A stretch of 64,000 nucleotides of DNA, from NCBI GenBank assembly GCA_030390025.1, contig JASTWF010000067.1:186001-250000 (forward strand), read 5' to 3'. A model generated the notes under the pieces. It was given only the letters and a program-made list of their open reading frames with translations, searched no databases and was not told the origin of the DNA. Position 1 is the first letter of the stretch. Each line of letters begins with the position of its first letter. The translations under genes and the position numbers were made by a program. This document shows positions 36,501-64,000 of the stretch, one piece after another. This DNA comes from Squalus acanthias (lineage: Eukaryota).

Positions 36501-39500
36501 CAGGCAGTAAGCCATGGGGACCAAACTGTAGTGCCTGAAATGGCGCCCTGGCCGAGTCCAGCTCGGTACAGATCATGAAACAACCTAGCACTGTCTGGCA
36601 TGCAAGGCTCAGGGATCACTCCATGCAGTGCGTACCTCAATTAGGTGTCCGGAATTTGAAGAAATATTTTTATGCAATGGTTTGACAATGATGTTGCCAG
36701 GACTGGAGAAATTTAGCTATGAGGAAAGATTGGATAGGCTGGGGGTTTTTTCTTTGGAACAGAGGAGGCTGACTTAATTGAGGTGTATAAAATTATGAGG
36801 GGCCTAGATAGAGTGGATTGAAGGACCTATTTCCCTTGGCAGAAAAGGTCAATAGCCAGAGGGCATAGATTTAAAGTAGTTGGTTAGGATTAGAGGGGAG
36901 ATGAGGGGAAAAAAATTTCACCCAGAGGGTGGTGGGGGTCTGGAACTCACTGCCTGGAAGGGTGGTAGAGGCAGAAACCCTCATCGCATTTAAAAAGTAC
37001 TTGGATATGCGCTTGAAGTGCCGTAACCTACAGGGCTACGGACCAAGAGCTGGAACGTGGGATTAGCTGGACAGTTCTTCTTTGTCTGGCACAGATGGGC
37101 TGAGTGGCCTCCTTCTGTGCCGTAAATTTCTATGATTCTGTCACTTGCATGATGTGGAGGGAGGGGGGGGGGGGGAAGGGTAATAAAAGAAACACTGCCG
37201 GTCTGGGTGTGCCTGGCAGCCTGTCGAGCTCAGGTTGGGTTTTTTTTCGTTCTTTTTACCTGTTTATGAGTTGCACAAACTGCTGGTACTGAAGCTGATG
37301 ATACAGGGCAGCTGCCAACTCCCGCTGCTTTTTCAGTCTCCCCTGGTCCATGTCGCCCTACCAAGACCAAACAAACTCCATTTGAAAAAAAAACAAAACC
37401 AGAGTTCTTCGACTTTCGAATAAACATGTGCTCTGTAAAAAACCAATTCTGCAAATAGACTTCTTGGTCACCTTTACATTTAGGATTTAACCACAGGCAA
37501 ATATTTCTACTGGTTAATCTTGTGAGACACCTGTGAAATGCAGATAAGGAGAAAAATAAAATGAAAAAAATGGCAGACTATTAAATACTGACATTTATTA
37601 AAAAATTAAAATAAAAAGTTATTTTTAACTATCAGTAGTTCACCCACTTATTGGCCAACTGGGGGGGGGGGGGTGGTGGATGGAGGTGGGAAGTCACTGT
37701 TAGCCCGCTCTGTGAAGTCTAGTGTGTGTGTGTGCACACGCGTGTGTGTGCGCGCGTGTTGGAGGACTGGATTTCTGTTGGCTCCAAGCTGGAGTGTTGC
37801 CCAGGCATATCCCACAGCAACATGCACTTCACCCAGTCACCAGACACCAGCAATATGGAGTCGCTTCGATTTGCACGCCATCCCTTGACACGGAAATAGC
37901 ACGGTGCAGAATTTATTTTTGGGGAAAAAAACAAGATACATCTACGATTTTAGTCAGAGTCTCGGGGTAACACTGCCTGCCACATACTGACGTCTAATTT
38001 TTTTTTTTTTTTTTTACAGCCAACGTGCGCCTCCTACCTGCTGACACAAAGTAGCATTTTCAGCAGGGCTGTGAGGAGACCACAATTCCACTTGTCCGTT
38101 CTCTTGGTTGCTTGGTTGGTGGTTTACAGAATAAGGGACAAGCTGTCAAGAAAGGGAGGACAAGGACCCCAAAAAAAAATTTATTCTTAATTTAAACTCC
38201 TAGTGGAAAGAATGCAATGGTCAAGTGGCAACCTAAAATGACAATCGACTACCAAAAAGAAGCAATGGCAAGTGGTTAAAATGACAATTATGACGGTGCA
38301 GGATTCGGATCTGGATAAGGGGGGGGCCGCCATTCCTCCGCAGGAGGCGATAACCATTGGCCACACACTTTGGCAAGGGGAGGAGAAAGAAAAATAAAAT
38401 GAGAGGACAGCTCATTGCAGACTTGCCACCTCCTCCTCAAGAGCACCACTGCAGGGGACCAGGAACAATGCCCTGCCTGAGCTTGGTGGGGGCAGGGGCC
38501 AGGGTGCCCGATTCTGAAGAATACAGGAGATGGGGAGACGGGCAGAACGCAAGAAAGGAATTAAAAAACATCAACCTACTCAAAAGATTTTTCTGGACAC
38601 GTTACTTAATGATTTTGAAAACTCTACTTTCCAATCCAGTCTGCTTTGTCAACAAGCCTGGTTCTGAAATCGGAGACCCGCCCTATACGCGAGGCCAGCG
38701 AGACAAACCAATTCGATTTAGTGGTTCGCCACAACTTCAGTACTTAAGTGCAAGCTGTGTCCAAATTAATCCCCCAATCTAAACCAAGGAACAGCTCCAC
38801 AAATGAATGGTATTTCAGTAGTTTAAAAAGGAAAGGAATAAGCAGAGGAGCCGTTATTACGCCTTCACTTAAATGGAGTCGGTGGAATACACTGACACAA
38901 GAACGACCCCCACCGCCCCCAACTATGAGCCACAATCAAATTTGCGGCTGTTTCTCCACAGAATCCCTTCTCCCACTCAAGGGGCATAGCAGATTGCCGG
39001 CGCACTGTTGGGCAGGTCGAGCTTCCTTTGCCACTCCCCCCGTTAGAAAACAAACAATCCACTTGATAAGAGGGGAAAATTAACACACAGGCTTGTGTTT
39101 CGGCACCTCGCGCTGGTACCAGTCAAACGAGAAACCATTTCACTCCATGCGTACGGTTCCGTATTTAAAAGGAAACTTTCAAAGCAGCATGGCTTGTAGG
39201 TGGCACCATGACCTCGGACCATGGTGCGCAACACTAGGGAGTCAGGTCGTAGGTTCAAGTCCGCGCTCCACCCTTTTCTCGATGACAGCCACTGAGGCGA
39301 CTGCAGCATCACCTGGGAACTGGATAGAGCTACTGGCAGACCACCAGCACACATGCCCTGATCACCCGAGGGTCTGTAAGCTGGCTGCGCATCCCTGCGG
39401 TACCAGAGGCTGAGGAGCACGATTAGGGATTTCGACAAGGCCCCACACCCACCCCCTTCCCCCCCCAAATCAGCATAACAGCACCCACTGGGAGCTGCAT

Positions 39501-42500
39501 ATCAAGAGGCTGCAGGTTAAAAAAAGTCTGCCATCACAAATTACGCATCCAGAGAACTTGGCTCAATTCAGTACGGTGAGGGAGGAGACAAAGAAAAAGG
39601 AGAGAGGGTGCGCTGATCTGGGTCACCCAAGCTCTTCCCTCCCTCAAGCCGGGTGTTCATATGCACGCGCACAAACACTACTAAAAAAGGTGTGCGCGCG
39701 CACACATGTTGGGGGGGGGGGGGGGGGGGGGCAGCATCAAAGGGAAGGAAATGCAAAAAGTAACAAACTGCAGACATCTGAATAAGCTCACTACACCCTC
39801 CCCTCCCATCCCAGAAACATTGAAGCCTGGAGGATAATGTTTGGTTTGCTTACCAGCAACGGTGGTGGAGAGGGTCCAGGAGCAAAAGGCACTCGTCCCC
39901 ACATTTTAATCACATCCCCCAGAGGCTGGAAACCCTCATCGCAACCCCGTTTGACCAGCAGGGACATGGGGAAATATCCAGCTTGGAACCAGTCAGCCAT
40001 TTCCTGTGTCGTGAACGGACCTAAAGAAAAACAATTAACATTAAAAGTTATTTTCAGCTTCCCTAATTGGTAAAAAAAAAGTAATTGACCCCCACCCCCC
40101 CCGCACCTGTTCTGCCATTCAATTAGATCATGGCTGTTCTGTACCTCAACTCCATTTACCCGCTGTGGTTGCATATCCCCAGATACACTTAGGATCATAG
40201 AATAGTACAGCACAGAAGGAGGCCATTCGGCCCAGAGTCTGTGCCGGCTCTTCCGAAGAGCAATCCAGTTAGCCCCACTGCCCCGCTCTTTCCCCATATT
40301 CCTGCAATTCCAGATCTCCACTGCCTCCCTGTGTGAGCAGCCTATTCAATCGCAGAGGGCAGCAGTTTGGTCATCTGACCTCCATGTGACATGCATTGTC
40401 CAGGTTTTTTTTTGGACCCGGGGCAGTCAGTAGCACAGGATCGTAATCAGGAGCACAGACCATGTCTGACTCTCTCTCTCTCTCCCTGCCTTGTCCCAGA
40501 AGCTTTGATGCCAAATGTAGTGAGGCCATGGCTGCCCTGGGCGAGGTCGGGTGACTCAGCAGAGGCTGGGAATCGGACTTGCGACTTTCTGCTCTGTGCA
40601 GTTTAGTACTACACCAAGTGATGGCCAAGTGATTCGAATCCACCCGCAATAACCAGACTGTTCGCAACTTCGGCGTCAAGTTTGACCCCGAGATGAGCTT
40701 CCGATCACATATCCACCTGATCACTAAAAACCATCCATGTCTTTGTTACCTCCAGACTTCACTATTCCAACGCACTCCTGGCCGGCCTCCCAAGTTCTAT
40801 CCTCTGTAAACTTGAGGTCGTCCAATACTCTGCTGCCCATGTCCTAACTCGCACCAAGTCCCGCTCGCCCATCACACCCTGTGCTCGCTGACCTACATTA
40901 GCTCCCGATTAAGCAACGCCGTGATTTAAAAATTCTCATCCTGGTTTTCAAATCCCTCCACGGCCTCTTCCCTCCCAATCTCTAACCTCCTGCGACCCTC
41001 CGAGATCTCTGCGCTTCTCCAGTTCTGGCCGCTTGAGCATCCCCGATTTCAATCTTTCCACCATTGGCGGCTGTGCCTTCAGCTGCCTGGGCCCCAAGCT
41101 CTGGAATTCCCTCCCTAAACCTCTCCGCCTCTCTCTCCTCCTTTAAATTTGACCAAGCTTTTGGTCATCTGCCCTAGTATCTCCAGATGTGGCTTGGTGT
41201 CAAATTTTGTTCGATAACGCTCCTCTGAAGAGCCTTGGGACGTTTTACTACATTAAAAGCACTATAGCTGTTGCTGTAATAAGGAGGTAAGAGGTCTATC
41301 CAATTCTCCTTGTCGAACCGCACTTCCGACTGTTGGGAGCTCGGCTTACCTTGGATCTCTCCCTGCGGGTCCTTGTAGAACCATTTCATGGCTGCCTCGT
41401 GCGAGAGGGGTAAGGCAGCGGCAGCTCGGCTCCTCTGATCCTGCATCATCTCCACGAACCGCTCATCGTCCAGCGAGTTGTCGTGCAGTGACGCGACCAT
41501 TTTTTCAGCTTCCTGCGGTGGAGAAACCACAAGGCGGGAAAGGCCGTGAAAAGTCACGAGGGGGCGGAACAGAACGCTCACGCTGCCGTTTGAGGGCCGC
41601 CTTTTCATTTTAAAATCAGGCTCAACTTTCAAGGGGGGGGGGGGGGGGGGGGGGGGGGGAGAGGAAGAGACAGTGCCCCTCGTGCCTAGAAATGTTCCGT
41701 ATAATTTTTGTTGGTGGTTGACTCCTTTAACTAGCTGCGCGGCCTATTTAAATTTTCGTGCATGCGCGGTTTCGCCCATGTGAAAGCCGGTGAGCGGCCT
41801 GCACGGGACCTCCAACGGGCATTGTGGTATGACCAGAGTCGGAAACCTTTGGTAATCCACCAAAACAAAACGGACAACAAATGCATCACAAATTAAACCT
41901 TAGAGGGTCCGTATTTGAGAGGCACAGTTTTAACGTAAAATAATCGGCTACAATTTTTAACCTCATGTTTTAAGAAAATGCCCATTGGGTGGGATAAAAT
42001 GCAGCCTGCAGTGTCACCGCTGTTTCCAGGGCAGCAGGTTCCTGGATTTCAGCCTCTTCAGGACAATGTGGCATGGCAAAGAAATATCTCCCCCCCCCCC
42101 CCCCCACCCCTGCAAAACAGATGAGCCCCCTCTTCCCTACCTGTTCAAAACGTTTCATCCCTTCATCGTCATCATTGTCCGCTGGTGCGAATTCAGCAGT
42201 GGTGCCGGGATAAGGAGGAGAGGAGGAAGGTGAAGAGGACGACAAAGTGGACACCGTTGCTGGACTTAGCTGAGCAGGCTGGCCCAAATTCACAGCTTCT
42301 GCGCGGGAAGGAAAAAAAAAAAATCAAAAAAGGTCAAGAGTCGGAACGTACATGCGGACAAAATAAATCCTGAAATTTAGCCTTTGAAACCGAGATGGTC
42401 GGGCAGCACCTCAGTAACACAGCACTGGAGCTGCGTCGAAGAATGCAGCACTTCAGATTGAGCCCATGATTCCCCCATACGATAAGCCTCCATAGTCCCA

Positions 42501-45500: not shown

Positions 45501-47545
45501 ACAAATTCCACACGTTGCCTTTACATGGTGTATAAAGACAAGTGAGCGGTTTACGGCGAGTAATTATTAGATTTCCGTACCATCAGCAGCAGGTTTGTTC
45601 TGTCCCTGGGTGTCTGACGCAGAATCCGCCATGTCAGGCTCAGCCCTGTGCACGACAGGCTCACATTCTTCAGGTACCGCGAGGAACACCTCCTGGGCCT
45701 GAGACTCGGAGGGGGAGGATGACGAACATGGAGAGGTTTTGCCGTTGTACACCTCGGTTGGCAGATCGGTTCTGTCTGTTGTGGATAAACAGGGTTATTC
45801 AGGAGCACAATCTTCGAGGAGCAACGGCTTATGGATTAATTTGAAGAGCTCCCCACTTGGCATACTAGGCACGAACACTGCCATGGTTAGTTCCTGGTTT
45901 TAGCTGATTTTAGCCAGGTATATATGTGTGAGTGAGACGGCAATGGGGATGCTGCAACTAGCCGCACCGCCTCCAGGCTAGGAATGGGCTCCTGATCACG
46001 ACCGAGTGACCTAAGAATTAGGAGAAGTAGGCCATACGACCCTTCGAGCCTGTTCCACCATTCAATAAGATCATGGCTGATCTTCTACCTCCATTTCTAC
46101 CTATTCTCCACTTTCCCGCCCGATCCCATATCCCTCGATTCCCCTAGAGTCCAAAAATCTATCTCAGCCTTGAATAGACGACTGAGCAGCCACAGTCCTC
46201 TGGAGTAGAGAATTCCAAAGATTCACAACCCTCTGAGTAAAGAAATTTCTCCTATCAGTCTTAAATGGCCGACACCTTATCCTGAAACTCTGCCCCCTAG
46301 TTCTAAACTCTCCAGACAGGGGAAACAACCTCTCAGCATCTAACCCTGTCAATCATCTTCATAATCTTGCATATTTCAATGAGATCACCTCTTATTCTTC
46401 TAAACTCCAGAGAGTATAGGCTCAATCCTGGGATGGCCGGACTGACAGATCAAGAAAGATTGGGTCAACTGAACTTGTATCCTCTGGAGTTCAGAAGAAT
46501 GAGGGGGGATCTTATAGAGACATTTAAAATCCTGACTGGTTTAGACAAATTAGATGCGGGCAGAATGTTCCCAATGGTAGGGAAAACTAGAACCAGGGGT
46601 CACAGTCTAAGGATTAAGGGGAAGCCATTTAGGACTGAGCTGAGGAGGAACTTCTTCACCCAGAGAGTGGTGAATCTATGGAATTCTCTTCCACAGAAGG
46701 TTGTTGAGGCCAGTTCGCTAAATATATTCAAAAGGGAGTTAGATATAACACTCACAACTAGGGGGATCAAGGGGTATGGCGAGAAAGCAGGAATGGGGTA
46801 CTGAGGTAGCATGTTCAGCCATGAACGCATTGAATGGCGGTGCAGGCTCGAAGGACCGAATGGTCTACTCCTGTACCTATTTTCTATGTTTCTATGTCTA
46901 TGTAATCTACTCAATCTCTTCTCATAGGACATCCCTCTCATCCCAGGAATCAATCGAGTGAACCTCATCCCAGGAATCAATCGGGTGAACCTCATCCCAG
47001 GAATCAATCGAGTGAACCTCATCCCAGGAATCAATCTCGTGAACCTCATCCCAGGAATCAATCTCGTGAACCTCATCCCAGGAATCAATCTAGTGAACCT
47101 CATCCCAGGAATCAATCTCGTGAACCTCATCCCAGGAATCAATCTCGTGAACCTCATCCCAGGAATCAATCTCGTGAACCTCATCCCAGGAATCAATCTC
47201 GTGAACCTCATCCCAGGAATCAATCTCGTGAACCTCATCCCAGGAATCAATCTCGTGAACCTCATCCCAGGAATCAATCGAGTGAACCTCATCCCAGGAA
47301 TCAATCGAGTGAACCTCATCCCAGGAATCAATCTAGTGACCGCTGCTAAAATGTGCATGTGTGGACACCGGGGGTTAAGACAGTTTGGCTGTGATGCCCT
47401 CCCGCAGTCGAGTAGCCTGCCAACAATGTCTAGACTCAGTCGAATGGCCACTCGGAAAAGGTATGGGCTGTCGGGCAGGCAACCTACCGACCAACATCCC
47501 CTTCCCCATAAACAGGAAACGGGGTGTTCGAGAGATTTCTAGGTT

Positions 47546-47580
<35 letters not shown>

Positions 47581-50500
47581 GAAAGAGAGAGGAGGAAAGA
47601 GTGAGAAGGGTGAAAAATAATTAAGAAAACAGTATATTCACAAGGAGGGCAGTTTTGTCAAAATGTCACAGCACTGTTCAGTGCAACCAGATGTATAGGG
47701 GAACAATACCTGGCACTGCCACGAGGTGCCCTCAGCACCCCTGGAATCTGGCGCACAAGTCTATTCATTCTGTCTGCATTACAAAAGTGATTGCCTTTGC
47801 ATGTCTAGGCATCTCACCGGCCACCAATGTAACCCATCTCCCATTTACCTGGGTAGCATCAGTGCAAACCCACTTGATGCCCAGCCACCTGCAGTGTTGC
47901 CCCTCGCCATCGCCCCCCACCCCCAGGATGTCCTCTGTGCTCTCGTGTGGGCGGCTAACCATATGAGGGAGGGCCAAGGGAAGGGAAAATTGCTGTAAAA
48001 ACCCTTTTAATTTTTGCTGAGAATTACAAGAGTCTCTTTCCGGTACTACAGAACCTGGTGCGTAGGGTTGAGGCAGCACAGAGGTTATTTAATCCTGGAC
48101 CGAACCAGGTCATAAATGACCTGGCTGTGCTCAATGCCGACACTGGGTGTCTGAAGTGGAGATCAAATAAGTATTCGCGTTCGGTTACCTGCATCACCAT
48201 TTTCAACATCCCCTTCCCCATAAACAGGAAACGGGGTGTTCGAGAGATTTCTAGGTTTTGGGGGGGGGGGGGGGGGAGGGGGGAGAAAGAGAGAGGAGGA
48301 AAGAGTGAGAAGGGTGAAAAATAATTAAGAAAACAGTATATTCACAAGGAGGGCAGTTTTGTCAAAATGTCACAGCACTGTTCAGTGCAACCAGATGTAT
48401 AGGGGAACAATACCTGGCACTGCCACGAGGTGCCCTCAGCACCCCTGGAATCTGGCGCACAAGTCTATTCATTCTGTCTGCATTACAAAAGTGATTGCCT
48501 TTGCATGTCTAGGCATCTCACCGGCCACCAATGTAACCCATCTCCCATTTACCTGGGTAGCATCAGTGCAAACCCACTTGATGCCCAGCCACCTGCAGTG
48601 TTGCCCCTCGCCATCGCCCCCCACCCCCAGGATGTCCTCTGTGCTCTCGTGTGGGCGGCTAACCATATGAGGGAGGGCCAAGGGAAGGGAAAATTGCTGT
48701 AAAAACCCTTTTAATTTTTGCTGAGAATTACAAGAGTCTCTTTCCGGTACTACAGAACCTGGTGCGTAGGGTTGAGGCAGCACAGAGGTTATTTAATCCT
48801 GGACCGAACCAGGTCATAAATGACCTGGCTGTGCTCAATGCCGACACTGGGTGTCTGAAGTGGAGATCAAATAAGTATTCGCGTTCGGTTACCTGCATCA
48901 CCATTTTCAACATCCCCTTCCCCATAAACAGGAAACGGGGTGTTCGAGAGATTTCTAGGTTTTGGGGGGGGGGGGGGGGGGGAGGGGGGAGAAAGAGAGA
49001 GGAGGAAAGAGTGAGAAGGGTGAAAAATAATTAAGAAAACAGTATATTCACAAGGAGGGCAGTTTTGTCAAAATGTCACAGCACTGTTCAGTGCAACCAG
49101 ATGTATAGGGGAACAATACCTGGCACTGCCACGAGGTGCCCTCAGCACCCCTGGAATCTGGCGCACAAGTCTATTCATTCTGTCTGCATTACAAAAGTGA
49201 TTGCCTTTGCATGTCTAGGCATCTCACCGGCCACCAATGTAACCCATCTCCCATTTACCTGGGTAGCATCAGTGCAAACCCACTTGATGCCCAGCCACCT
49301 GCAGTGTTGCCCCTCGCCATCGCCCCCCACCCCCAGGATGTCCTCTGTGCTCTCGTGTGGGCGGCTAACCATATGAGGGAGGGCCAAGGGAAGGGAAAAT
49401 TGCTGTAAAAACCCTTTTAATTTTTGCTGAGAATTACAAGAGTCTCTTTCCGGTACTACAGAACCTGGTGCGTAGGGTTGAGGCAGCACAGAGGTTATTT
49501 AATCCTGGACCGAACCAGGTCATAAATGACCTGGCTGTGCTCAATGCCGACACTGGGTGTCTGAAGTGGAGATCAAATAAGTATTCGCGTTCGGTTACCT
49601 GCATCACCATTTTCAACATCCCCTTCCCCATAAACAGGAAACGGGGTGTTCGAGAGATTTCTAGGTTTTGGGGGGGGGGGGGGGGGGGGGGGGGGAGGGG
49701 GGAGAAAGAGAGAGGAGGAAAGAGTGAGAAGGGTGAAAAATAATTAAGAAAACAGTATATTCACAAGGAGGGCAGTTTTGTCAAAATGTCACAGCACTGT
49801 TCAGTGCAACCAGATGTATAGGGGAACAATACCTGGCACTGCCACGAGGTGCCCTCAGCACCCCTGGAATCTGGCGCACAAGTCTATTCATTCTGTCTGC
49901 ATTACAAAAGTGATTGCCTTTGCATGTCTAGGCATCTCACCGGCCACCAATGTAACCCATCTCCCATTTACCTGGGTAGCATCAGTGCAAACCCACTTGA
50001 TGCCCAGCCACCTGCAGTGTTGCCCCTCGCCATCGCCCCCCACCCCCAGGATGTCCTCTGTGCTCTCGTGTGGGCGGCTAACCATATGAGGGAGGGCCAA
50101 GGGAAGGGAAAATTGCTGTAAAAACCCTTTTAATTTTTGCTGAGAATTACAAGAGTCTCTTTCCGGTACTACAGAACCTGGTGCGTAGGGTTGAGGCAGC
50201 ACAGAGGTTATTTAATCCTGGACCGAACCAGGTCATAAATGACCTGGCTGTGCTCAATGCCGACACTGGGTGTCTGAAGTGGAGATCAAATAAGTATTCG
50301 CGTTCGGTTACCTGCATCACCATTTTCCGTCCTATCTGACTCCTTATAAAATTCCATATCATATTCGTTCTCTGGTCGCTCGTCCAACTCGTCCACTCCT
50401 CTGAAGTCCAGCTCCTGCTCCTCGGGAATCGGTTCCTTGGAACCTTTCTGTTTAACACACCAATTAAGAATCAGTTAGGGATAAACACAGCGCAGGACAC

Positions 50501-53500
50501 TGACTGAAGAGGTGGTTGGCAGAGAGCTGCAAGAATTACATTACATCGAATTTACAGCACAGAAACAAGCCATTCAGCCCAACTTAACATAGAAGATATG
50601 GCCTACTCCTGCTCCTTCGGCCCCTCGAGCCTGCTCCGCCATTCGATGAGATCATGGCTGATCATCTAAACTCAGTACCCTGTACCTGCCTTCTCCCCAT
50701 ATCCCTTGATACCTTTAGCTTTAAGAAATATATCTAACTCATCCTTGAATATATTTAATGACTTCGCCTCAACTACCTTCTGTGGTAGAGAATTCCACAG
50801 GTTCACCACTCTCTGGGCGAAGAAATTCTTCCTCATTTCTGTCCTAAATGGTTTACCCGTTATCCGTAGATTATGACCCCTGGTTCTGGACTCTCCGACC
50901 ATCGGGAACATTCTTCCTGCATCTAGTTTGTCCAGACCTGTCAGAATTTTATATGTTTCGATGAGATCCCCTCTCATTCTGCGAAACTCCAGTGAGTATA
51001 AGCCCAATCGACCCAATCTCTCCTCATATGTCATTCCTGCCATCCCAGGTATCAGCCTTGTGAATCTTCGCTGAACTCCTTCCATGGCAAGAACATCCTT
51101 CCTCAGATAAGGCGACCAAAACTGCACACAGTACTCAAGGTGTGGTCTCACCAAGGCCCTGTACAACTGCAGCAGTCATGATGCGGAGATGCCGGTGTTG
51201 GACTGGGGTGGACAAAATTGAGAGGTCGCACAACACCAGGTTATAGTCCAACAGTTTTATTTGAAATCACAAGCTTTCGGAGCTATCGATCGCACCTGAG
51301 GAAGGGGCGATCGATAGCTCCGAAAGCTTGTAACTGCAGCAGGACATCCCTGTTCCTATACTCAAAGCCTTTCGCTATGAAGGCCAACATACCATTTGCC
51401 TTCTTCACCGCCTGCTGCACCTGCATGCTTACTTTCAGCGACTGGTGCACAAGGACACCCAGGTCTCGTTGCACTTCCCCTTCTCCCAATCTATTGCCAT
51501 TCAGATAATAGTCTGCCTTTCTGTTTTTGACACCAAAGTGGATAACCTCGCACTTATCCACGTTATATTGCTTCTGCCCACTCACCCAACCTGTCCAGAT
51601 CATCCTGGAGTTTCTCGCTATCCTCCTCGCTGCACACACTCCCACCCAGCTTTGTGTCACCTGCAAACTTGGAGATATTACATTTAATTCCCTTATCTAG
51701 ATCATTAATGTATATTGTGAATAGCTGGGGTCCAAGGACCGATCCCTGCGGTACCCCACTAGTCACTGCTTGCCACTCGGAAAAAGACCCATTAATTCCT
51801 ACTCTCTGCTTTCTGTCCGCCAACCAGTTCTCTATCCAAGTCAATACCTTGCCCCCAATCCCATGTGCCTTAACTTTACCCGCTAATCTCTTATGCGGGA
51901 CCTTATCGAAAGCCTTTTGAAAGTCCAAATACACCACATCTACTGGTTCTCCCTTATCTATTTTCCCAGTTACATCCTCAAAAAATTCCAGTAGATTAGT
52001 CAAGCACTATTTACCTTTTGTAAATCCATGTTGACTTTGTCCGATCTGGTCACTGTTTTTCAAATGCTCAGCTATTACATCCTTTATAATGGACTCTAGC
52101 ATTTTCCCCACTACCGATGTCAGGCTTACCGGTCTGTAATTCCCCGCTTTCTCTCTACCACCCTTTTTGAATAGTGGGGTAACATTAGCTACCCTCCAAT
52201 CCATGGGTACAGTTCCAGATTCCATCGAATGTTGGAAGATGATCAGCAATGCATCTACTATTTCTAGGGCCACTTCCTTAAGTACCCTAGGATGTAGATT
52301 ATCAGGCCCTGGGGATTTATCGGCCTTCAATACCGTCAATTTCCCTAACACCATTTCCCTGCAAATACTGATTTCTTTCAGTTCCTCCCTTTCATCAGAC
52401 CGTATGTTCTCCAACATCTCTGGGAGGTTATTTGTGTCCTCCTTTGTGAAGACAGAACCAAAATATGCATTTAATTGGGCTGCCATTTCTTTGTTCCCCA
52501 TTATAACTTCCCCCGCTTCTGACTGCAAGGGACCTACACTTGATTTCACTAATCTTTTTCTCTTCACATATCTATAAAAGCTCTTACAGTCAGTTTTTAT
52601 GTTCCCAGCAAGCTTACTTTCATATTCTATTTTCCCCTTCTTAATTAATCCCTTTGTCCTCCTTTGTTGAATCCTAAACTGCTCCCAATCCTCAGGGCTA
52701 CCGCTTTTTCTGGCCAATTTATATGCCCTCTCCTTGGATCTTATGCTATCCCTAATTTCCCTTGTTAGCCACGGTTGAGTCACCCTTTTTGTTTTATTCT
52801 TATGCCACACTGGGATGTACAAATTCTGTAGTTCATCCATGCAGTCTTTGAATGTTTGCCATTGCCTATCCACCGTCAACCCCTTGCGTGACATTCCCCA
52901 ATCAATCCTACCCAATTCGCGCCTCATACCATCGTAGTTTCCTTTATTTAAATTCAGGACCCTAGTCTCTGATTCAACTACTTCACTCTCCATCCTAATG
53001 AAGAATTCTATCATATTATGATCACTCTGACCCAAGGGGCCTCGTACAACAAGATTGCTAATTAATCCTTTCTCGTTGCATAATACCCAGTCTAAGATGG
53101 CCTGATCTCTGGTTGGTTCCTCGACATATTGTTCCAGAAAACCATCTCGTAAACATTCTAGGAATTCCTCCTCCACAGTATTTTTACTAATTTGGTTAGC
53201 CCAATCTATATGTAAATTAAAGTCACCCATGATGACTGCTGTGCCCTTACTGCATGCTTCTCTAATTTCCCTTTTAATGCCGTCCCCAACCTCCGTATTA
53301 CTGTTTGGAGGTCTATATACCACTCCCACTAACGTTTTCTGCCCCTTGTTATTTCTTAGTTCTACCCATACAGATTCCGCATCATCAGAGCTAATATCCT
53401 TCCTTTCAATTGTGTTAATCCCCTCTTTAACCAGCAATGCTACCCCACCTCCCTTTCTTTTTTGCCTATCTTTCCTAAATATTGAATAACCCTGGATGTT

Positions 53501-56500
53501 GAGTTCCCAGCCTTGGCCACCCTGGAGCCATGTTTCTGTAATCCCAATCAAATCGTATTCATTTACCTCTATTTGCGCAGCTAATTCATCCACCTTGTTC
53601 CGAATGCTCCTTGCATTAAGACACAAAGCCTTCAGGCTTGTTTTTTTAACGCTTTCAGACCTATATGAATTATTATTTACTGTGACCATGTTTGATTTAA
53701 ACCATTGAGTTCTTTACCTTCTACTTTTGTTTTTCTCCTTCCTGTCTTTAGCTTTTATCCTTATTTCCCTTTCCTCTGTCTCCCTGCTCAGGTTCCCAAC
53801 CCCCTGCCACTTTAGTTTAAACCCTCCCCAACAGCACTAGCAAACACTCCCCCTAGGACATCGGTCCCGGCCCTGCCCAGGTGCAGACCGTCCCGTTTGT
53901 ACTGGTCCCACCTCCCCCAGAACCGGTTCCAATGTCCAAGGAATTTGAATCCCTCCCCCTTGCACCATTCCTCTAGCCACGTATTCATTTGAAATATCCT
54001 CCTATTTCTACTCTGACTAGCACGTGGCACTGGTAGCAATCCTGAAATTACTACCTTTGAGGTCCTCTTTTTTAATATACCTCCTAACTCCCGATATTCT
54101 GCAACTGGTCTATGCCGGTATTTATGCTCCACATGAGCCTCCTCCACCCTACCAAGTTTTCCCTTAAATACATCTGTGCTATTTGCCTCAACTACTCCAC
54201 AGCAATATGATGTGCTTTATCAATGCTTTACTCAATGTGGCAGTGAGCTTCACATAGGAACAGGAGTAGGCCATTCAGCCCCACAGCCTGTTCCTCCATT
54301 CAATTAGATCATGGCTGATCTGTATCTTAATACCCTTGCCTAAAAAGAATCTATCAATCTTAGTTTTCACATTTTCAATTGAAACCCCCAGCCTCAACAG
54401 CTTTTTGGGGAGAGTGTTCCAGATTTCCACTACCCTTTGGGTGAAGAAGTTCTTCCTGACATCACCCCCGAACAACCTAGCTCTAATTTTACATAGAAAC
54501 ATAGAAAAATAGGAGCAGTAGGTCGTCATTCGGCCCTTCGAGCCTGCTCCGCCATTCAATATGATCATGGCTGATCCTCTATCTCAATACCATATTCCCG
54601 CTCTCTTCCCCATACCCCTTGATGCCTTTTGTGTCTAGAAATCTATATCTCCTTCTTAAATATATTCATTGACTTGGCATCCACAGCCTTCAGTGGTAGA
54701 GAATTCCACAGGTTCACCACCCTCTGAGTGAAGAAATTTCTCATCAGTGTTCTGGACTCCCCCACCAGAGGAAATAGTTCCTCTCTATCTTCCCTATCAA
54801 ATCCTTTAATCATCTGAAACACCTCAATTAGATCACCCCTTAATCTTCTAAACTCAGGTGAATTCAAGCCTAGTCTGTGCAACCTGTCCTCATAATTTAA
54901 CCCTTTTAGCCCCGGTATCATTCCGGTGAATCTGCTCTGCCACCTCTCCCCCTTACAGAACAGAAGGTCCCAGGTTTCTTTCACAGTCTGCACGGAGTTA
55001 GCTGACCTCAGCTCCGGTGGTGGCGACGCAACAATCAGCCTCGGTGCCCTGGACGAGAAGTGGGTTGGGGGGGGGGGGGGGGGGGGGGGGGAATTAACCG
55101 GCGCTCCTGCGTGAATGCGCACACAAGACATTGGGCGAGGGCATCCCTGCGCTCAGCTGCCAAGCCTCTCCACAAATAGCCAGCTACTCTCACTGTTTAG
55201 GCTGACACAGGCAAGGCATGAAAGAGCACCCGTACTCCAGCAGGAGTCAGCACCTCCAGAAAAGGAGAGGAGCAGAGGAAATCGTTAGAGAAAGAGACTC
55301 ACATTTTGTTGGGAAAAAAAATCCCAGTCGAGAAAAAAGTTCCTAAAACACATCCACAGAACCACATCCGCATCCCTCCTCCGTGCTTTCGCCCGTCCCA
55401 CTTGAGACCATAGGTTATGTACCTTTAATGACATGAAAGCGCCAGATGAATCAAACGTCCCCATTTCCTCTTCTGCGTCTTCCAGGCACCACTCGGGCAA
55501 ATTATCCTTCTCGTCTTCGTAGCTGCCGCTGCCCGTCCTGCCCCTCCTGTACGTGCGCTCCTCGTCTCGCTCCCGGAAATCAAAGTCAAACCTCCGCCGC
55601 CGCTGCTGCTCGGTGTGGTCCCTCCAGCCTGCGGAGCGAGGACCGTCTGCAATAAAGGAGAAGGGGAGGAGGTACAACCGTCAGGGCCCATGCCAGCCAG
55701 GCAAGAGACAAAAAAAGACACACATTATGAGGCGGATGAATTTTTCTCCCCACTTTAAGTGGTAAATATGAGGCGGCACTTTTGTGCCACTTTAACTGCT
55801 CCACCTTGGAACTCAGCGGGTGTGGAAGTGAGCCACTCAGGAAGGCCACAGCATTCTTATTCAAAAGCCCACGGTTAGCGGTAGGGAATGGAATATGCTC
55901 CCCTTTCAGGCAACCAGCGCCAGCTTCAAGCACACCCACGTCAGGTACAACAGAATTTGAGGCAGAGTAAATCTCCTCCTAGCCTGCCCCATCAAATAAT
56001 CCCAGGGCAGGTACAACAACATGCATTTATATAGCGTATTTAACGCAGTAAAACGTCGCAAGGCGCATCTCAGGAGCGTTATCAAACAAAATTTGACATC
56101 GAGCCACATAAGGGGATATTAGGACAGGTTTGGTCAAAGAGGTAGGTTTGAAGGAGAGACACGTGGAGAGGTTGAGAGCACAAGCGAGCCAATTCCACAG
56201 CTGAGGGCCTAGGCAGCTGAAGGCACGCCCGCCAATGTTGGATCAATGAAAATCAGGGGTTACCGAATACAGAGTAAAGCTCCCTCTACACTGTCCCATC
56301 AAACACTCCCAGGGCAGGTACAGCACGGGTTAGATACAGAGTAAAGCTCCCTCTACACTGTCCCCATCAAACACTCCCAGGGCAGGAACAGCACGGGTTA
56401 GATACAGAGTAAAGCTCCCTCTACACTGTCCCATCAAACACTCCCTGGGCAGGTACAGCACGGGTTAGATACAGAGTAAAGCTCCCTCTACACTGTCCAA

Positions 56501-59121
56501 TCAAACACTCCCAGGGCAGGTACAGCACGGGTTAGATACAGAGTAAAGCTCCCTCTACACTGTCCCATCAAACACTCCCAGGGCAGGTACAGCACGGGTT
56601 AGATACAGAGTAAAGTTCCCTCTGTACTGTCCCATCAAACACTCCCGGGGCAGGTATGGCACGGGTTAGATAGAGTAAAGCTCCCTCTTCTCCAGCACAA
56701 CAATGTACCCCAGACCAGCGCCCCCTAATGCACCAGTGAGACATTTTCCCACTTCCCACACCAGCCATCCTGTAACCTTGGAGTAAGAGTTCAAACTAAA
56801 TGGCAATTAATGCCAGTACTGGTCCAAGTCTATTGAGTACTGGATCGAGACTGCACAAACTCATTTCACATAGAACCTTAGCCAAATAACAGTAGGGACT
56901 CCACTCATCACAGCCTCAACCCAAATACCCTCAATTTGTAGGGCCCCTCTGTTGCCCATCACTTAGTTGTGATTGGATCCATTTCAGCATGTTGGCGCCA
57001 ATACCGTGTCGGTTAACTGTCTCCATTATAGGTTTCTATGGGACACCTCGTCAAAAACTTGACTAAAATCCAAGTCAGGCACATCTACATTCTCAAATAT
57101 ACTCATTGTTCGGATATGACTTCCTTTTGTAAATCCATGCCGACCTTCCAATTAGTTTATATCTTCCTGATGCTACACCAACCTGCCCTGGACAACTCAT
57201 TCTTGAATTTTCCCTCGTGGCCTATAGTTCCAATAATTCCCTGTGGTGTCAACCGTGGCTCAGTGGGTAGCACTCTCGCCTGAGTCAGAATCACAAAAAC
57301 AGATTATCTGGTCATTATTACATTGCTGTTTGTGGGAGCTTGCTGTGCATAAATTAGCTGCTGCGTTTCCTACATTACAACAGTGACGACACTTCAAAAG
57401 TACTTCATTGGCTGTAAAGCACTTTGGGATGTTCTGAGGATGTGAAAGGTGCTATAGAAATGCAAGTCCTTCTTTTTGGAATTTTTTTTTTTAAACAGAG
57501 AATTACATCCTCCAGTACCAGCCCCTTTTCTAACAAATGCTCAATACTTCTGCCAGCTCCCCCAAGCGCCCGCAGATGAATCCCATTCAGCCCACGTAAC
57601 TTTATTCACTCCGATCTTACCGAGGTGTTCAGCTACTAACTGAGTAATTGCTGATTTTATTATACTGCTCATTCTATCCTGGAATGCCATCTCTGCTACA
57701 GCCCCTGTAACGTCCTTTGCCCATATAAATATACAACCAAAAGAACTCATTCAATTTATTTCAGCTATTTCCACATCGTCGCTAATCTCAACCCCCTTTG
57801 CAGAAGCCAGTGCCAGTGATTCTATACTCGTGTATCTTTTCCATTTACCTCTAATGCGCTTAAATTTCCTGCTCATTTTAAATTCAAGGCCGTTTTATCA
57901 GCCCTTCCTCTAAATTTTTCTTGTACTCGTTCTTCATGTCTTGTGGTTCAAATATATGGGAATGCCTTCACTTTATTCCTAACAGTTTGAATCACCTTCA
58001 ATCATCCAGGGCTGCCTTTGTCACTCACTGTTCTTACTAAGACTCAGATATACATTATGCCACTTCCCCCTCAATTCTGTTCGTTTTAGCTACCACTCCC
58101 CGCCCCCCTCTTTTTTTTTTTTTTAAGCCTTGTGCCATTCTTCTCTTACCTGTGCGCACATTCTCCGAAAATCTGCCTTTCCAAAGTTCAATGGCCAGAT
58201 GTCTCTACTCTTTCCTTACAACAAACCTTATGACTAGCGTTCCCGGTAAGCTGCGCAGCCGCCCAGCTGTCTGGCGGTCCTGTGCGGGTCGCTCACCGGC
58301 TTTTGAGTGGGAGATTTTGCGCGTGTGAAATTTTGAATAGGCCTCGCAGCCCGTTAAAGGGACCGCGCACCCAAAAAAAAATTAAGGGGGGGAACGCTGC
58401 TTACTATGATTACTGTTCCCCACTCCTCCTCCACCTCGAATCCTGCTGTGATGTCCCCATTATTGCTACGTGCAGCGCTACGAAAGGCAAATGCAAAAAC
58501 CCTCACGGGTTGGAAATGGTCTTTTTCCGAGATACCTGGGCTCGGGGGCCGCCACCGATCGCCTTCTCTTCTTGCACCAGCCATTCTCCAGCCTCCGTCC
58601 TCATCTTCGCCGTTTTGTTCTTCGCGAATGGCCCGCCAGTTCTCACTGTCGGAGCGTGCAAAATCCTGCTTGCGCGACGTCGGAGCCACTTCCTCAAACC
58701 CTACCCGTACTTAAAGGAAAGAGGAGGAGAAAAGGGAGAGAGAGGAGGAGAAAAGGGAGAGAGAGGAGGAGGAAGAAGAGAGAAGTCGGAGAAGAGGAGC
58801 GAGAGTCAGGTTTTGTACTTGTACTGTTAAAACATTAGCATTCTAGTTTTAGCACTGAAATTACATGAAGTTATGTACTAAAGACATCCGTATTGGCCAT
58901 TGGACAAGTCAATCAAGATGGATTATCTCTGAAAACCAGTTTCCCCAACAACTGATGGGTGAGTAAAAGCACCCATTAACTTCTAATCACTTTGCTCTTT
59001 ATCACTATGGGGCCCAGAGAGAATTAATTATTATTTTTTTTTAAATGTTAATAAGATTTTCCTAATAGTTCAAATCATACCTCCATCTCTCCGACCAGGC
59101 TTCTCAAATCTTCTGTCACCC
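3916..59121 (-). CDS. GIGYF1: GRB10-interacting GYF protein (GIGYF1-like), 22 coding exons in window, 5' end outside window
   Basis: Exons join in frame with GT-AG sites (3154 nt total). Product has the DDX6-binding region [20 protein letters not shown] domain [32 protein letters not shown] coiled coil and GIGYF C-terminus. The family call is secure; paralogue 1 vs 2 rests on recalled GYF-domain residues. Confidence 0.85.
4086..4847. mobile_element. Non-autonomous DNA transposon (MITE) with ~17-bp TIRs
   Basis: Left agccccggaatttgcggt versus right accacaaattccgggtct (inverted match); no coding capacity. Confidence 0.65.
4900..5315 (+). mobile_element. tRNA-derived SINE with LINE-derived tail
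   Basis: A-box-like tagtggttatg and B-box gttcaaatccc; tail gatgggcaataaatgc..cccgagaatgaat shared with LINE ends at 10265, 23175, 25320 and 61080. Confidence 0.6.
6473..6517 (+). repeat. (GA)n microsatellite
   Basis: About 22 GA units. Confidence 0.95.
6886..7033 (-). CDS. GIGYF1: GIGYF exon U (148 nt) ..[17 protein letters not shown]
   Basis: tgtcag| ... |gtaaga. Confidence 0.94.
10265..11665 (-). mobile_element. Degenerate LINE 3' part, interrupted by a SINE
   Basis: RT C-terminal remnant ..[19 protein letters not shown]..; same tail as 60340-61130. Confidence 0.7.
10330..10783 (+). mobile_element. Deu-domain SINE (SacSINE1-like), near full length
   Basis: tRNA-like head, central domain ..taaaaaatcccatggcacta.., L2-like tail ..aaggcgctatagaaatg. 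Confidence 0.8.
12629..12798 (-). CDS. GIGYF1: GIGYF exon T (170 nt) [46 protein letters not shown]
   Basis: ttgcag| ... |gtagtg; highly conserved C-terminal domain. Confidence 0.96.
14064..14221 (-). CDS. GIGYF1: GIGYF exon S (158 nt) [37 protein letters not shown]
   Basis: ttgcag| ... |gtatgt. Confidence 0.95.
14500..14880 (-). mobile_element. CR1 LINE 3' fragment
   Basis: [24 protein letters not shown]; inverted relative of 29985-30440. Confidence 0.8.
15360..16190 (-). mobile_element. CR1 LINE 3' fragment
   Basis: ORF2 C-terminus [32 protein letters not shown]. Confidence 0.92.
16696..16892 (-). CDS. GIGYF1: GIGYF exon R (197 nt) ..[18 protein letters not shown]
   Basis: cactag| ... 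|gtttgt; phase 0 to 2; [12 protein letters not shown] recalled as GIGYF1-type. Confidence 0.88.
17201..17902 (+). repeat. 24-bp purine-rich minisatellite (GGAGAAAGGCGGAGTTGGGGAAGA)n, about 28-29 copies
   Basis: Near-perfect tandem array; first units are 26 bp. Confidence 0.97.
18373..18537 (-). CDS. GIGYF1: GIGYF exon Q (165 nt; NAGNAG alternative start 18534)
   Basis: ctccag|CAG|TGT.. [22 protein letters not shown]; |gtgagt. Confidence 0.9.
18581..19318 (-). mobile_element. Young CR1 3' fragment with 5' inversion
   Basis: 18581-19197 is minus-strand ORF2 C-terminus plus (CATAGAAA)n tail; 19200-19318 is a plus-strand piece [34 protein letters not shown]. Confidence 0.92.
19325..19709 (+). 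mobile_element. Deu-domain SINE (SacSINE1-like), 5' truncated
   Basis: Matches 10330-10783. Confidence 0.82.
20186..21150 (+). repeat. Compound minisatellite (GGTCCCTGCCGCTGACC(AC)nCCCCAT/AG)n, about 28 copies of 30-42 bp
   Basis: Constant 17-bp core plus variable (AC)n spacer. Confidence 0.96.
21347..21439 (-). CDS. GIGYF1: GIGYF exon P (93 nt) [27 protein letters not shown]
   Basis: catcag| ... |gtaagt; phase 0-0. Confidence 0.9.
21476..22200 (-). mobile_element. Degenerate CR1 fragments
   Basis: 3' tail at 21476-21750 and RT remnant [19 protein letters not shown]. Confidence 0.75.
22640..22861 (-). CDS. GIGYF1: GIGYF exon O (222 nt) ..[19 protein letters not shown]
   Basis: ttccag| ... 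|gtactg; phase 0-0. Confidence 0.9.
22885..23100 (+). mobile_element. CR1-type 3' tail carrying an inserted minisatellite unit
   Basis: Inverted relative of 21476-21640. Confidence 0.72.
23649..23935 (+). mobile_element. Deu-domain SINE, 3' truncated
   Basis: Head gtcagccgtggctcagttggtagcac and central domain. Confidence 0.8.
24117..24260 (-). CDS. GIGYF1: GIGYF exon N (144 nt), E/R coiled coil
   Basis: ttccag| ... |gtgatt; phase 0-0. Confidence 0.9.
24855..25252 (+). mobile_element. CR1 3' fragment
   Basis: [22 protein letters not shown] and CR1 tail. Confidence 0.88.
25961..26095 (-). CDS. GIGYF1: GIGYF exon M (135 nt), E/R/K coiled coil
   Basis: gttcag| ... |gtaatg; phase 0-0. Confidence 0.9.
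27150..28890 (-). mobile_element. CR1 LINE, 5' truncated, RT domain, double 3' tail
   Basis: [39 protein letters not shown]; frameshifts downstream. Confidence 0.95.
29113..29513 (-). mobile_element. Deu-domain SINE (SacSINE1-like)
   Basis: Reverse complement of the 10330 family. Confidence 0.8.
29985..30440 (+). mobile_element. CR1 3' fragment
   Basis: [24 protein letters not shown]. Confidence 0.85.
30637..30725 (-). CDS. GIGYF1: GIGYF exon L (89 nt) [30 protein letters not shown]
   Basis: ttctag| ... |gtaaga; phase 1 to 0. Confidence 0.92.
31488..31588 (-). CDS. GIGYF1: GIGYF exon K (101 nt) ..[16 protein letters not shown]
   Basis: ccccag| ... |gtgagg; conserved RS(L/M)SVP motif. Confidence 0.92.
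32294..32453 (+). mobile_element. hAT-like MITE
   Basis: Ends caatg.. and ..ttagagggaacattg; degenerate 8-bp TSD gtcggtat/gttgggat. Confidence 0.6.
32980..33545 (-). mobile_element. CR1 3' fragment interrupted by hAT-like MITE (33264-33404)
   Basis: CR1 tail resumes after the MITE; partial TSD ..atgtc. Confidence 0.78.
34214..34321 (-). CDS. GIGYF1: GIGYF exon J (108 nt), Q-rich
   Basis: ttgtag| ... |gtaatg; phase 2-2. Confidence 0.9.
34752..35128 (-). mobile_element. Deu-domain SINE
   Basis: Reverse complement of the 10330 family. Confidence 0.8.
35870..37140 (+). mobile_element. Two tandem degenerate CR1 3' fragments (35870-36420 and 36690-37140)
   Basis: [12 protein letters not shown]..; tails ending ctatgattct. 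Confidence 0.8.
37260..37357 (-). CDS. GIGYF1: GIGYF exon I (98 nt) [32 protein letters not shown]
   Basis: tggtag| ... |gtaaaa; phase 0 to 2. Confidence 0.92.
39854..40020 (-). CDS. GIGYF1: GIGYF exon H (167 nt), GYF domain core
   Basis: [55 protein letters not shown]; ctttag| ... |gtaagc. Confidence 0.97.
40650..41272 (+). mobile_element. L2 LINE 3' fragment
   Basis: ..atccatgtctttgttacctccagactt.. and L2 tail ccttgggacgttttactacattaaaagcactata. Confidence 0.8.
41350..41512 (-). CDS. GIGYF1: GIGYF exon G (163 nt), start of GYF domain
   Basis: [22 protein letters not shown]; ccgcag| ... |gtaagc. Confidence 0.96.
41690..41824 (-). mobile_element. hAT-like MITE
   Basis: Inverted copy of the 32294/33264/58235 family. 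Confidence 0.55.
42141..42298 (-). CDS. GIGYF1: GIGYF exon F (158 nt) ..[13 protein letters not shown]
   Basis: gcgcag| ... |gtaggg; DDEG(L/M)K motif. Confidence 0.9.
42735..42912. mobile_element. Degenerate inverted Penelope-like terminal relic with decayed hammerhead core
   Basis: Inverted ends aaagcagaaaatgctgga / ccagtattttctgctttt; minus strand ctgacgaagggtctaaacccgatat (GAAA decayed). Confidence 0.5.
43655..44107 (-). mobile_element. Deu-domain SINE, near full length
   Basis: Reverse complement of the 10330 family; tail-only copy at 43455-43555 (+). Confidence 0.82.
44930..45235 (+). mobile_element. Deu-domain SINE, 5' truncated
   Basis: Matches family. Confidence 0.82.
45581..45775 (-). 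CDS. GIGYF1: GIGYF exon E (195 nt), low-complexity linker
   Basis: caacag| ... |gtacgg; phase 1-1 and open in the frame linking D and F; poorly conserved sequence. Confidence 0.75.
46010..47340. mobile_element. Minus-strand CR1 fragment with nested plus-strand CR1 (about 46428-46905)
   Basis: Host reads ..agagtataggctcaatc | aatctactcaatctc..; insert ends in (tctatgtt)n tail. Confidence 0.85.
46936..47340 (+). repeat. 27-bp minisatellite amplified from CR1 ORF2 (RFTRLIPGM)n, about 15 copies
   Basis: Unit ctcatcccaggaatcaatctcgtgaac with variants. Confidence 0.95.
47492..50327 (+). repeat. Tandem duplication, 4 near-identical units of 704-714 bp
   Basis: Units start 47492, 48204, 48908 and 49614; visible differences confined to the G tract. 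Confidence 0.96.
50312..50447 (-). CDS. GIGYF1: GIGYF exon D (136 nt) [25 protein letters not shown]
   Basis: aaacag| ... |gtaacc; conserved [12 protein letters not shown]. Confidence 0.93.
50585..54101 (-). mobile_element. Young CR1 LINE: ORF1 esterase C-terminus plus nearly complete ORF2 (APE endonuclease + RT), inactivated
   Basis: ORF1 ..[15 protein letters not shown].. (53812-54100). ORF2 [39 protein letters not shown]. In-frame TAG at 52007, FAGD in place of FADD, frameshift near 51565. Confidence 0.96.
51176..51331. mobile_element. Penelope-like terminal fragment with inversion and minimal hammerhead ribozyme motif
   Basis: TSD aactgcagcag at 51165-51175 and 51332-51342; perfect 25-bp inverted repeat; cac-CTGAGGA-stem-GAAA-GCT-T-gt. 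Confidence 0.8.
54255..54950 (-). mobile_element. Nested CR1 3' fragments
   Basis: Second tail catagaaacatagaaaa at 54492 inside an older CR1. Confidence 0.82.
55423..55646 (-). CDS. GIGYF1: GIGYF exon C (224 nt), DDX6/Me31B-binding motif
   Basis: [37 protein letters not shown]; ttgcag| ... |gtacat. Confidence 0.95.
56015..56260 (-). mobile_element. L2 3' tail fragment
   Basis: Inverted relative of 41150-41272. Confidence 0.65.
56267..56690 (+). repeat. 67-bp minisatellite, about 6 copies
   Basis: Unit atacagagtaaagctccctctacactgtcccatcaaacactcccagggcaggtacagcacgggttag. Confidence 0.95.
57247..57477 (+). mobile_element. Deu-domain SINE with internal deletion, inside an old CR1 relic
   Basis: Head joined directly to the 3' portion. 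Confidence 0.75.
58235..58399 (+). mobile_element. hAT-like MITE
   Basis: TIRs agcgttccc / gggaacgct. Confidence 0.6.
58536..58709 (-). CDS. GIGYF1: GIGYF exon B (174 nt) ..[33 protein letters not shown]
   Basis: tttaag| ... |gtatct; long pyrimidine tract upstream; conserved RS(D/E)SENWR motif. Confidence 0.93.
59081..59121 (-). CDS. GIGYF1: GIGYF exon A (41 nt) [13 protein letters not shown]
   Basis: ccgcag| ... |gtatga; phase 2 to 1. Confidence 0.9.
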
Positions 59122-63903: not shown

Positions 63904-64000
63904 GAACCCTGTATCGTGCCTGCTGTGCGGACCGAACCCTGTATCGTGCCTGCTGTGCGGACCGAACCCTGTATTGTGCCTGCTGTGCGGACCGAACCCT
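63904..64000 (+). repeat. 30-bp tandem repeat (gaaccctgtatcgtgcctgctgtgcggacc)n, runs off window end
   Basis: More than 3 copies visible. Confidence 0.9.

Follow-up and report, generated by a model that had tools for sequence, protein, structure and literature searches.

Gao and Lynch are said to have described, in 2009, the gain of exons and introns by internal tandem duplication. Bringing latent splice sites into use through such duplications is a described route to exon and intron gain (PMC3443670), and DMD pseudoexons have been reported to arise after duplications (PMC7175933). In human FGG, a 403-bp exon 8-intron 8 duplication was assayed in a minigene, where intron retention was given as the main product (PMC9052919). 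A minor product of that minigene combined a cryptic acceptor in the duplicate with the duplicated donor, resulting in a frameshift and a premature stop. For the 74-bp duplication MSH6 c.3936_4001+8dup, use of the duplicated donor and a transcript out of frame are reported (PMC9818763). Moreover, the VNTR in ABCA7 intron 18 has a unit of 25 bp that starts at the donor of exon 18, and use of a second donor is described to yield an NMD-sensitive frameshift (PMC5954066). According to these accounts, tandem duplications that copy a donor and create pseudo-exons are already known from FGG, and a donor-containing VNTR from ABCA7.

Here we analysed a stretch of 64,000 nt from Squalus acanthias (the window), in which a tandem array is assembled across the donor of an exon termed D. 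Like the FGG allele, it is a tandem duplication with a breakpoint in an exon and a copied authentic donor, and like the MSH6 allele it duplicates an exon-intron boundary. With the ABCA7 VNTR, whose copy number is variable, it has in common that tandem units repeat a donor. A literature search, which left supplements outside its scope, found no report on this shark locus.

A tandem array at the exon D donor of a GIGYF-family gene

A GIGYF-family gene lies with its 3' part on the minus strand of the window. Its 24 coding exons, running from 59121 to 3916 (minus strand), splice to a single open frame of 1105 codons, and its product shares 97% identity with the closest shark protein that has a name. 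In the set used for the tree, identity amounts to 84-97% for eight cartilaginous-fish proteins and to 50-56% for seven bony-vertebrate proteins of the GIGYF2 group (six named so, one without a name); bony-vertebrate GIGYF1 was not part of this tree, which therefore cannot decide between GIGYF1 and GIGYF2. The name GIGYF1, under which the gene had been introduced in the preliminary description, is favoured by the GYF domain of the close shark relative P0007 (138 bits on human GIGYF1, 125 on GIGYF2) and by a skate protein of the same cluster that carries this name, whereas most shark records are labelled 'GIGYF2-like'. Judged from these comparisons the gene is likely GIGYF1 rather than GIGYF2.

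As assembled, four head-to-tail units of ~705 nt span 50327-47493 on the minus strand (Table 1). In all six pairwise alignments of the units the differences are confined to a poly-C run, which reads C6TC26, C6TC19, C6TC17 and C32 in units 1 to 4, respectively. The left breakpoint is located 16 nt inside exon D (50327-50312), so that the donor CAG/GTAACC is present four times. The assembly thus contains a tandem duplication of an exon-intron junction, with an exonic breakpoint and an authentic donor copied three extra times, as had been proposed; the copied exonic part, previously put at ~15 nt, is corrected to 16 nt. Four identical units are not due to chance. The three junctions are identical to each other and one G is common to both breakpoints (1 nt microhomology), while further homology between the breakpoints consists of just a 5-mer, off register. 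Since no other match of the unit was found within the window, repeat-mediated recombination is not evident at the breakpoints. At least five other tandem arrays are present in the window.

Table 1. Positions of the exons, array units and candidate splicing elements in the window.
Feature	Position	Strand	Description
Exon D	50312..50447	-	136 nt, ends in phase 1; from tblastn with shark proteins and open spliced frame
Exon E	45581..45775	-	195 nt; normal splice partner of exon D
Exon F	42141..42298	-	holds TGA 42292-42290, reached if one 62-nt segment is included
Unit 1	49615..50327	-	713 nt; exonic part 16 nt, then donor and intron (697 nt)
Unit 2	48909..49614	-	706 nt
Unit 3	48205..48908	-	704 nt
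Unit 4	47493..48204	-	712 nt; continues into single-copy downstream intron
Acceptor-like region, unit 1	49661..49796	-	134-nt AG-free zone, mixed U/C tract, C6TC26, AAAACCTAG
Candidate pseudo-exon 1	49599..49660	-	46 intronic nt, junction, 16 nt from exon D
Candidate pseudo-exon 2	48893..48954	-	sequence identical to candidate 1
Candidate pseudo-exon 3	48189..48250	-	sequence identical to candidate 1
Fourth, pre-existing candidate exon	47488..47538	-	shared acceptor and weak flank donor TCG/GTAGGT; 51 nt, in frame, no stop

Candidate exons and the quality of their splice sites

At each junction the authentic donor comes to lie 62 nt behind an acceptor-like site, and each of the resulting segments is bounded by CCTAG/ and GCAG/GTAACC. 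The positions, identity and borders of the three segments agree with the preliminary description, as do the recomputed frames, for which a frameshift by one copy and a TGA in a second copy had been claimed. A single copy in the transcript has no internal stop and shifts the frame; 88 new residues follow until the TGA at nt 7 of exon F is reached. With two or three copies, the reading frame would meet a TGA in the second one, at its nt 46. As 18 coding exons lie beyond exon F, the predicted stop is far upstream of the last junction, and the predicted frames are those of a poison exon, whose stop lies well upstream of the last exon junction. As sequence logic, the proposed chain from donor spacing to a premature stop upon inclusion is right. 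The segments also have the motifs by which a pseudoexon is defined (PMC7175933), i.e. an acceptor motif at the 5' and a donor motif at the 3' side, with the acceptor being weak proximally.

Two further uses of these sites were considered. If exon D were extended to a later donor, the product would be an 849-nt exon with an early stop; we judged this unlikely, as an exon of this length is not expected by exon definition. The other is the fourth candidate exon of Table 1, whose donor scores 3.7 bits compared to 5.6-10.4 bits in 21 of the 23 real donors. The acceptor-like region is repeated in each unit and is thus present in a single-unit allele as well. Going by the sequence, the putative acceptor is older than the duplication, and the single-unit allele has a weak in-frame partner donor for it 51 nt downstream.

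Splice sites were scored using matrices derived from the gene itself, a small training set of 23 donors and 24 acceptors. The copied donor reaches 7.9 bits (leave-one-out) and is mid-range among the real donors. The candidate acceptor, at -0.5 bits, ranks under all 24 real ones. Its positions -20 to -4, the 17 bases preceding the final TAG, are free of U, where real acceptors have 5-12. Pairs of this quality are frequent: in 49,067 nt, 24 other intronic donors that go unused lie 50-250 nt downstream of an acceptor that is equal or better, and an acceptor as good is found at exon distance for 42,690 of 43,487 intronic positions (98%). Within its 62 nt the candidate exon has two GGGG runs, compared to 12 in 3319 nt of real exons; such runs can act as splicing silencers.

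The upstream anatomy of the acceptor is unusual. The AG-free zone measures 125-134 nt in the units and exceeds those of all 24 real acceptors (12-106 nt). In unit 1, yUnAy motifs place an A at -84, -74 and -65, and across the units the branch-like A is 75-84 nt away from the AG. The branch-like CTTAAT and the CCTAG had been pointed out before and are present; the AG-free zone had been given as ~70 nt and is considerably longer. A rule demanding an AG-free zone of ≥100 nt, a branch motif and a U-rich tract returns no other site in 49,021 intronic nt, and three others when the zone is relaxed to ≥60 nt. This rule was shaped on the candidate and is passed by just 2-3 of the 24 real acceptors, hence it marks the site as unusual and is not evidence of its use. 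The acceptor-donor pairing is therefore common or rare by chance, according to the score chosen. In mammals, poly-C binding proteins can activate C-rich tracts, as reported in PMC4797308, and a recognised class of intronic stretches is described that have strong sites and yet never undergo splicing (PMC2095810).

Copy number and exon D splicing in DNA and RNA samples

A run search listed 22 runs, none of them on record as RNA, and four entered the comparison. Between 0.83 and 0.88 of the words were contained in five DNA runs (X1-X5), which belong to two samples and two studies; apart from X2-X4, the runs left aside contained ≤0.14. One run per DNA sample was compared on 49560-50575, a region that takes in exon D, the first unit and its junction with unit 2: X1 for sample S1 (~97% read; X2-X4 come from the same sample) and X5 for sample S2 (~55% read). 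The contigs used here are Logan contigs, described as paths without branches in a k=31 graph after its simplification and reported only above 150 bp (PMC12424806). At k=31 the array would make branch nodes, with two entries at 50327 and two exits at 49614, and 29 k-mers are specific to the junction.

In X1 one contig of 872 nt covers 50561-49716 and in X5 one of 841 nt covers 50561-49745, both crossing the left breakpoint unbroken. In both runs a second contig departs from the reference at 49614 and continues for 188 nt (X1) or 187 nt (X5) with sequence other than that of the junction. This is the distance from the right breakpoint to a downstream 27-bp array (branch nodes ending 47309-47303), and judged by its length the tail would represent the downstream flank. 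As unbroken contigs cross both would-be branch nodes, these data indicate that the array is absent and a single unit is present in both DNA samples. Graph simplification might delete a junction path, but it generally affects only paths much shallower than those around them, and three junction copies would not be that shallow. The missing junction contig and the zero depth on 49560-49593 are uninformative, since a junction contig would have ~60 nt and the Logan minimum is 150 bp. Ratios of unit to exit contig depth of 1.16 (X1) and 1.35 (X5), where 1.0 is expected with a single unit, 1.6-1.7 in a 4/1 heterozygote and 2.0-2.2 in a 4/4 animal, lean weakly towards a single unit, depth not being copy number.

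The alleles observed are hence one unit in two samples and four units in one assembly. In the preliminary description a single unit in the reads was named as the sign of an assembly artefact; both DNA samples display it, neither of them being known as the assembled animal. With the junction missing in both, a regulatory poison exon as a fixed, conserved feature was not found in these samples. At SNP 49846 all four copies and X5 have G, while X1 and X6 have T. Single-unit haplotypes thus differ more at this site than the four copies do, which argues that the array, if real, is young. X5 is identical to the window across all 817 aligned letters, and a further 24 letters next to 49745 remain unaligned. 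A joint between 50061 and 50538 in X5 was set aside as spurious, one side being 21 nt that run into a high-copy repeat.

Two runs, X6 and X13, were taken as RNA by guess, a status supported by a spliced join of exons C and D. In both, a contig aligns on exon D (50312-50449), and its upstream loose end is the end of exon C. Downstream the contig extends 683 nt past the exon D donor in both runs, which is exactly the total length of exons E, F, G and H and implies that D joins E directly. The shared contig end can be attributed to the exon after H, which is missing from the alignment of some isoforms. Direct joining of D and E is thus the main spliced form in both RNA samples, whose animals are not known carriers. 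RNA contigs drop rare paths and anything below 150 bp, so the lack of RNA cover on 49599-49660 is uninformative. Exons D and E are likewise joined in all 53 shark, ray and chimaera proteins examined, with the same spacing in 48 and one additional residue in five; NMD forms would be missed by protein annotation.

Origin of the array and comparison with known systems

Taken together, we tentatively read the array as a private allele born of a recent duplication, with its extra copies mostly spliced out along with the intron, and give this reading a probability of about 0.4. A single tandem duplication of blunt type may have occurred on an ordinary haplotype, followed by growth to four copies via unequal exchange or repeated copying. 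A recent origin is suggested because the copies are identical outside the poly-C run while SNP 49846 segregates within the unit. The definition of exon D would still rest on its own acceptor together with the first donor. As decoy exons, the 62-nt segments would be used at a low rate at most, and any transcript containing one would be cleared by NMD. Weak use is expected because of the low acceptor score, the missing proximal U, the equal pairs that go unused elsewhere and the GGGG runs. The copied donor is authentic, however, the AG-free zone is the longest of the gene and C-rich tracts may be activatable, all of which could favour inclusion. By analogy, the duplicated donors of FGG and MSH6 nearly abolish normal splicing, which would also speak against extra copies mostly being removed with the intron, although the geometry differs.

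The sample data fit an assembly or read artefact equally well as a private allele. A long read that is a concatemer or a chimera could have generated the array, as could a loop in the assembly graph at the poly-C run, with no animal carrying it. We consider this doubtful but a serious competitor, given that the array was found in neither of two DNA samples and that the units differ in a homopolymer alone, where read errors concentrate. The DNA sample richest in shared words may even be the source sample, and X5 agrees with the window wherever it was aligned. Given the unaligned letters of X5 and the difference of S1 from all four copies at 49846, neither sample is established as the assembled haplotype. 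That the array is real rather than an artefact is argued by the length range of 17-32 in the poly-C run, by the one copy lacking the T interruption and by the clean 1105-codon frame; differences of up to 15 nt in the run contrast with a gene that is frameshift-free elsewhere. Tandem growth is also ordinary here, as seen from the other arrays of the window.

A real private allele could alternatively be hypomorphic, with inclusion of 62-nt segments or intron retention leading to NMD and lower GIGYF1 levels. We regard this as unlikely, though it draws on an authentic donor at an exon-sized distance with three chances rather than one, on branch motifs within that longest AG-free zone and on a premature stop in every combination of the segments. 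In the minor transcript reported for FGG, the normal donor was likewise spliced to a cryptic acceptor in the duplicate, followed by the duplicated donor. However, the shark acceptor has the lowest proximal score and no U near its AG, and 16 exonic nt with donors 713 nt apart compare poorly with the 169 exonic nt copied in FGG and the 74 nt between the MSH6 donors. Still less probable is a very young real four-copy allele in a wild shark, in which each extra unit contributes a ready-made poison exon, built from a latent poly-C acceptor with a distant branch point and the copied authentic donor, and GIGYF1 output falls stepwise with copy number. If it were true, exon birth would be caught at the moment of duplication and prior to fixation, in a natural dose series for exon definition.

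The model of the preliminary description, in which poison exons let the copy number of the array tune GIGYF1 dosage, here taken as an array that varies in copy number and persists in the population, is very improbable: its principle is known from the ABCA7 VNTR and human splicing-associated tandem repeats and loss of GIGYF1 function has a phenotype in human (PMC8566487), but at most four haplotypes in two DNA samples all lack the array, copies without divergence give no sign of age or conservation, ABCA7 VNTR length is not linked to NMD in the published account, and none of the 53 cartilaginous-fish proteins has more than one residue inserted between D and E, a comparison that NMD forms would escape. 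The array itself is hence confirmed in the assembly, while its regulatory reading, including dosage tuning by copy number, is without support.

If real and used, the array would exemplify a natural structural variant in a dosage-sensitive gene, each of its junctions giving rise to a frameshifting exon; human carriers of GIGYF1 loss-of-function variants are reported to have raised glucose and diabetes risk (PMC8566487). It would also lend itself to a minigene series on acceptor quality and donor spacing in exon birth. Its main value at present is as a caution: when one assembly shows a long and perfect tandem array, this may reflect a private variant or an artefact, and the four-unit array is no basis for a reference gene model.

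With respect to known systems, poison exons of the SCN1A 20N type resemble the shark segments in that a premature stop and NMD would result if they were included. They are, however, conserved, fixed and seen in RNA, whereas the shark segments are known from the assembly alone. The ABCA7 VNTR is described as common, old and highly polymorphic, with no acceptor in its unit and a length without effect on NMD; the shark unit is long, has acceptor and donor and occurs in one assembly only. In MSH6 the downstream donor lengthens the exon by ~72 nt, compared to the 849-nt exon that extension would require here. Internal duplications and the DMD cases share with the shark array that splice signals are repositioned and can create new spliced segments. 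Those cases are transcript-backed, and the DMD pseudoexons are activated at a distance rather than built at the junction. The FGG allele has 169 exonic nt in two copies with a demonstrated effect, in contrast to 16 nt in four copies seen in an assembly, and in the shark array the putative acceptor is contributed by the intronic end of the unit.

Tandem arrays and the LINE upstream of exon D

Tandem growth is frequent in the GIGYF1-type gene, whose introns carry several arrays besides the four 705-bp units (see table). The 27-bp array is derived from a piece of the tail of a LINE reverse transcriptase; it lies on the downstream side of the 705-bp array, at a distance of 150 nt. The 24-bp array stops about 300 nt ahead of the exon at 16892, and over its length the sense strand of the intron is nearly all pyrimidine. 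The LINE at 50579-54746, which we take to be of CR1 type, is split at about 51175-51330 by a short element. Read by eye, this insertion carries an inverted repeat within it and seems to have an 11-nt target duplication.

Features of the gene in window coordinates
Feature	Position	Strand	Remarks
24-bp tandem array	17202-17903		29 copies, 99% identical; intronic
Minisatellite, 34-bp unit	20188-21089		intronic
105-nt exon	38038-38142	(-)	some isoforms of sharks and rays lack it in their alignments
27-bp tandem array	46937-47339		about 15 copies, 97%; same intron as 705-bp array
Candidate exon, 51 nt	47488-47538	(-)	in-frame; 705-bp unit acceptor, weak donor in flank
LINE, presumably CR1-type	50579-54746	(-)	near full-length; intron preceding exon D
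Minisatellite, 67-bp unit	56267-56688		intronic
Minisatellite, 30-bp unit	63904-64000		intronic

Exon usage and junction variants

Both RNA contigs stop exactly ahead of the 105-nt exon. Together with the isoform gaps, these ends are consistent with alternative splicing of this exon. At the D-E junction (45775) five of the 53 relatives (P0143, P0145, P0147, P0150 and P0154) possess one additional residue, as a tandem acceptor would give. The 51-nt candidate exon is present even without the 705-bp duplication.

The tract beside the branch-like motif

In the contig from X5 (record 18), the DNA run of sample S2, the leading 24 letters lie outside the alignment to the window (49721-49744). The U-rich tract next to the branch-like motif may not be identical between S2 and the window.
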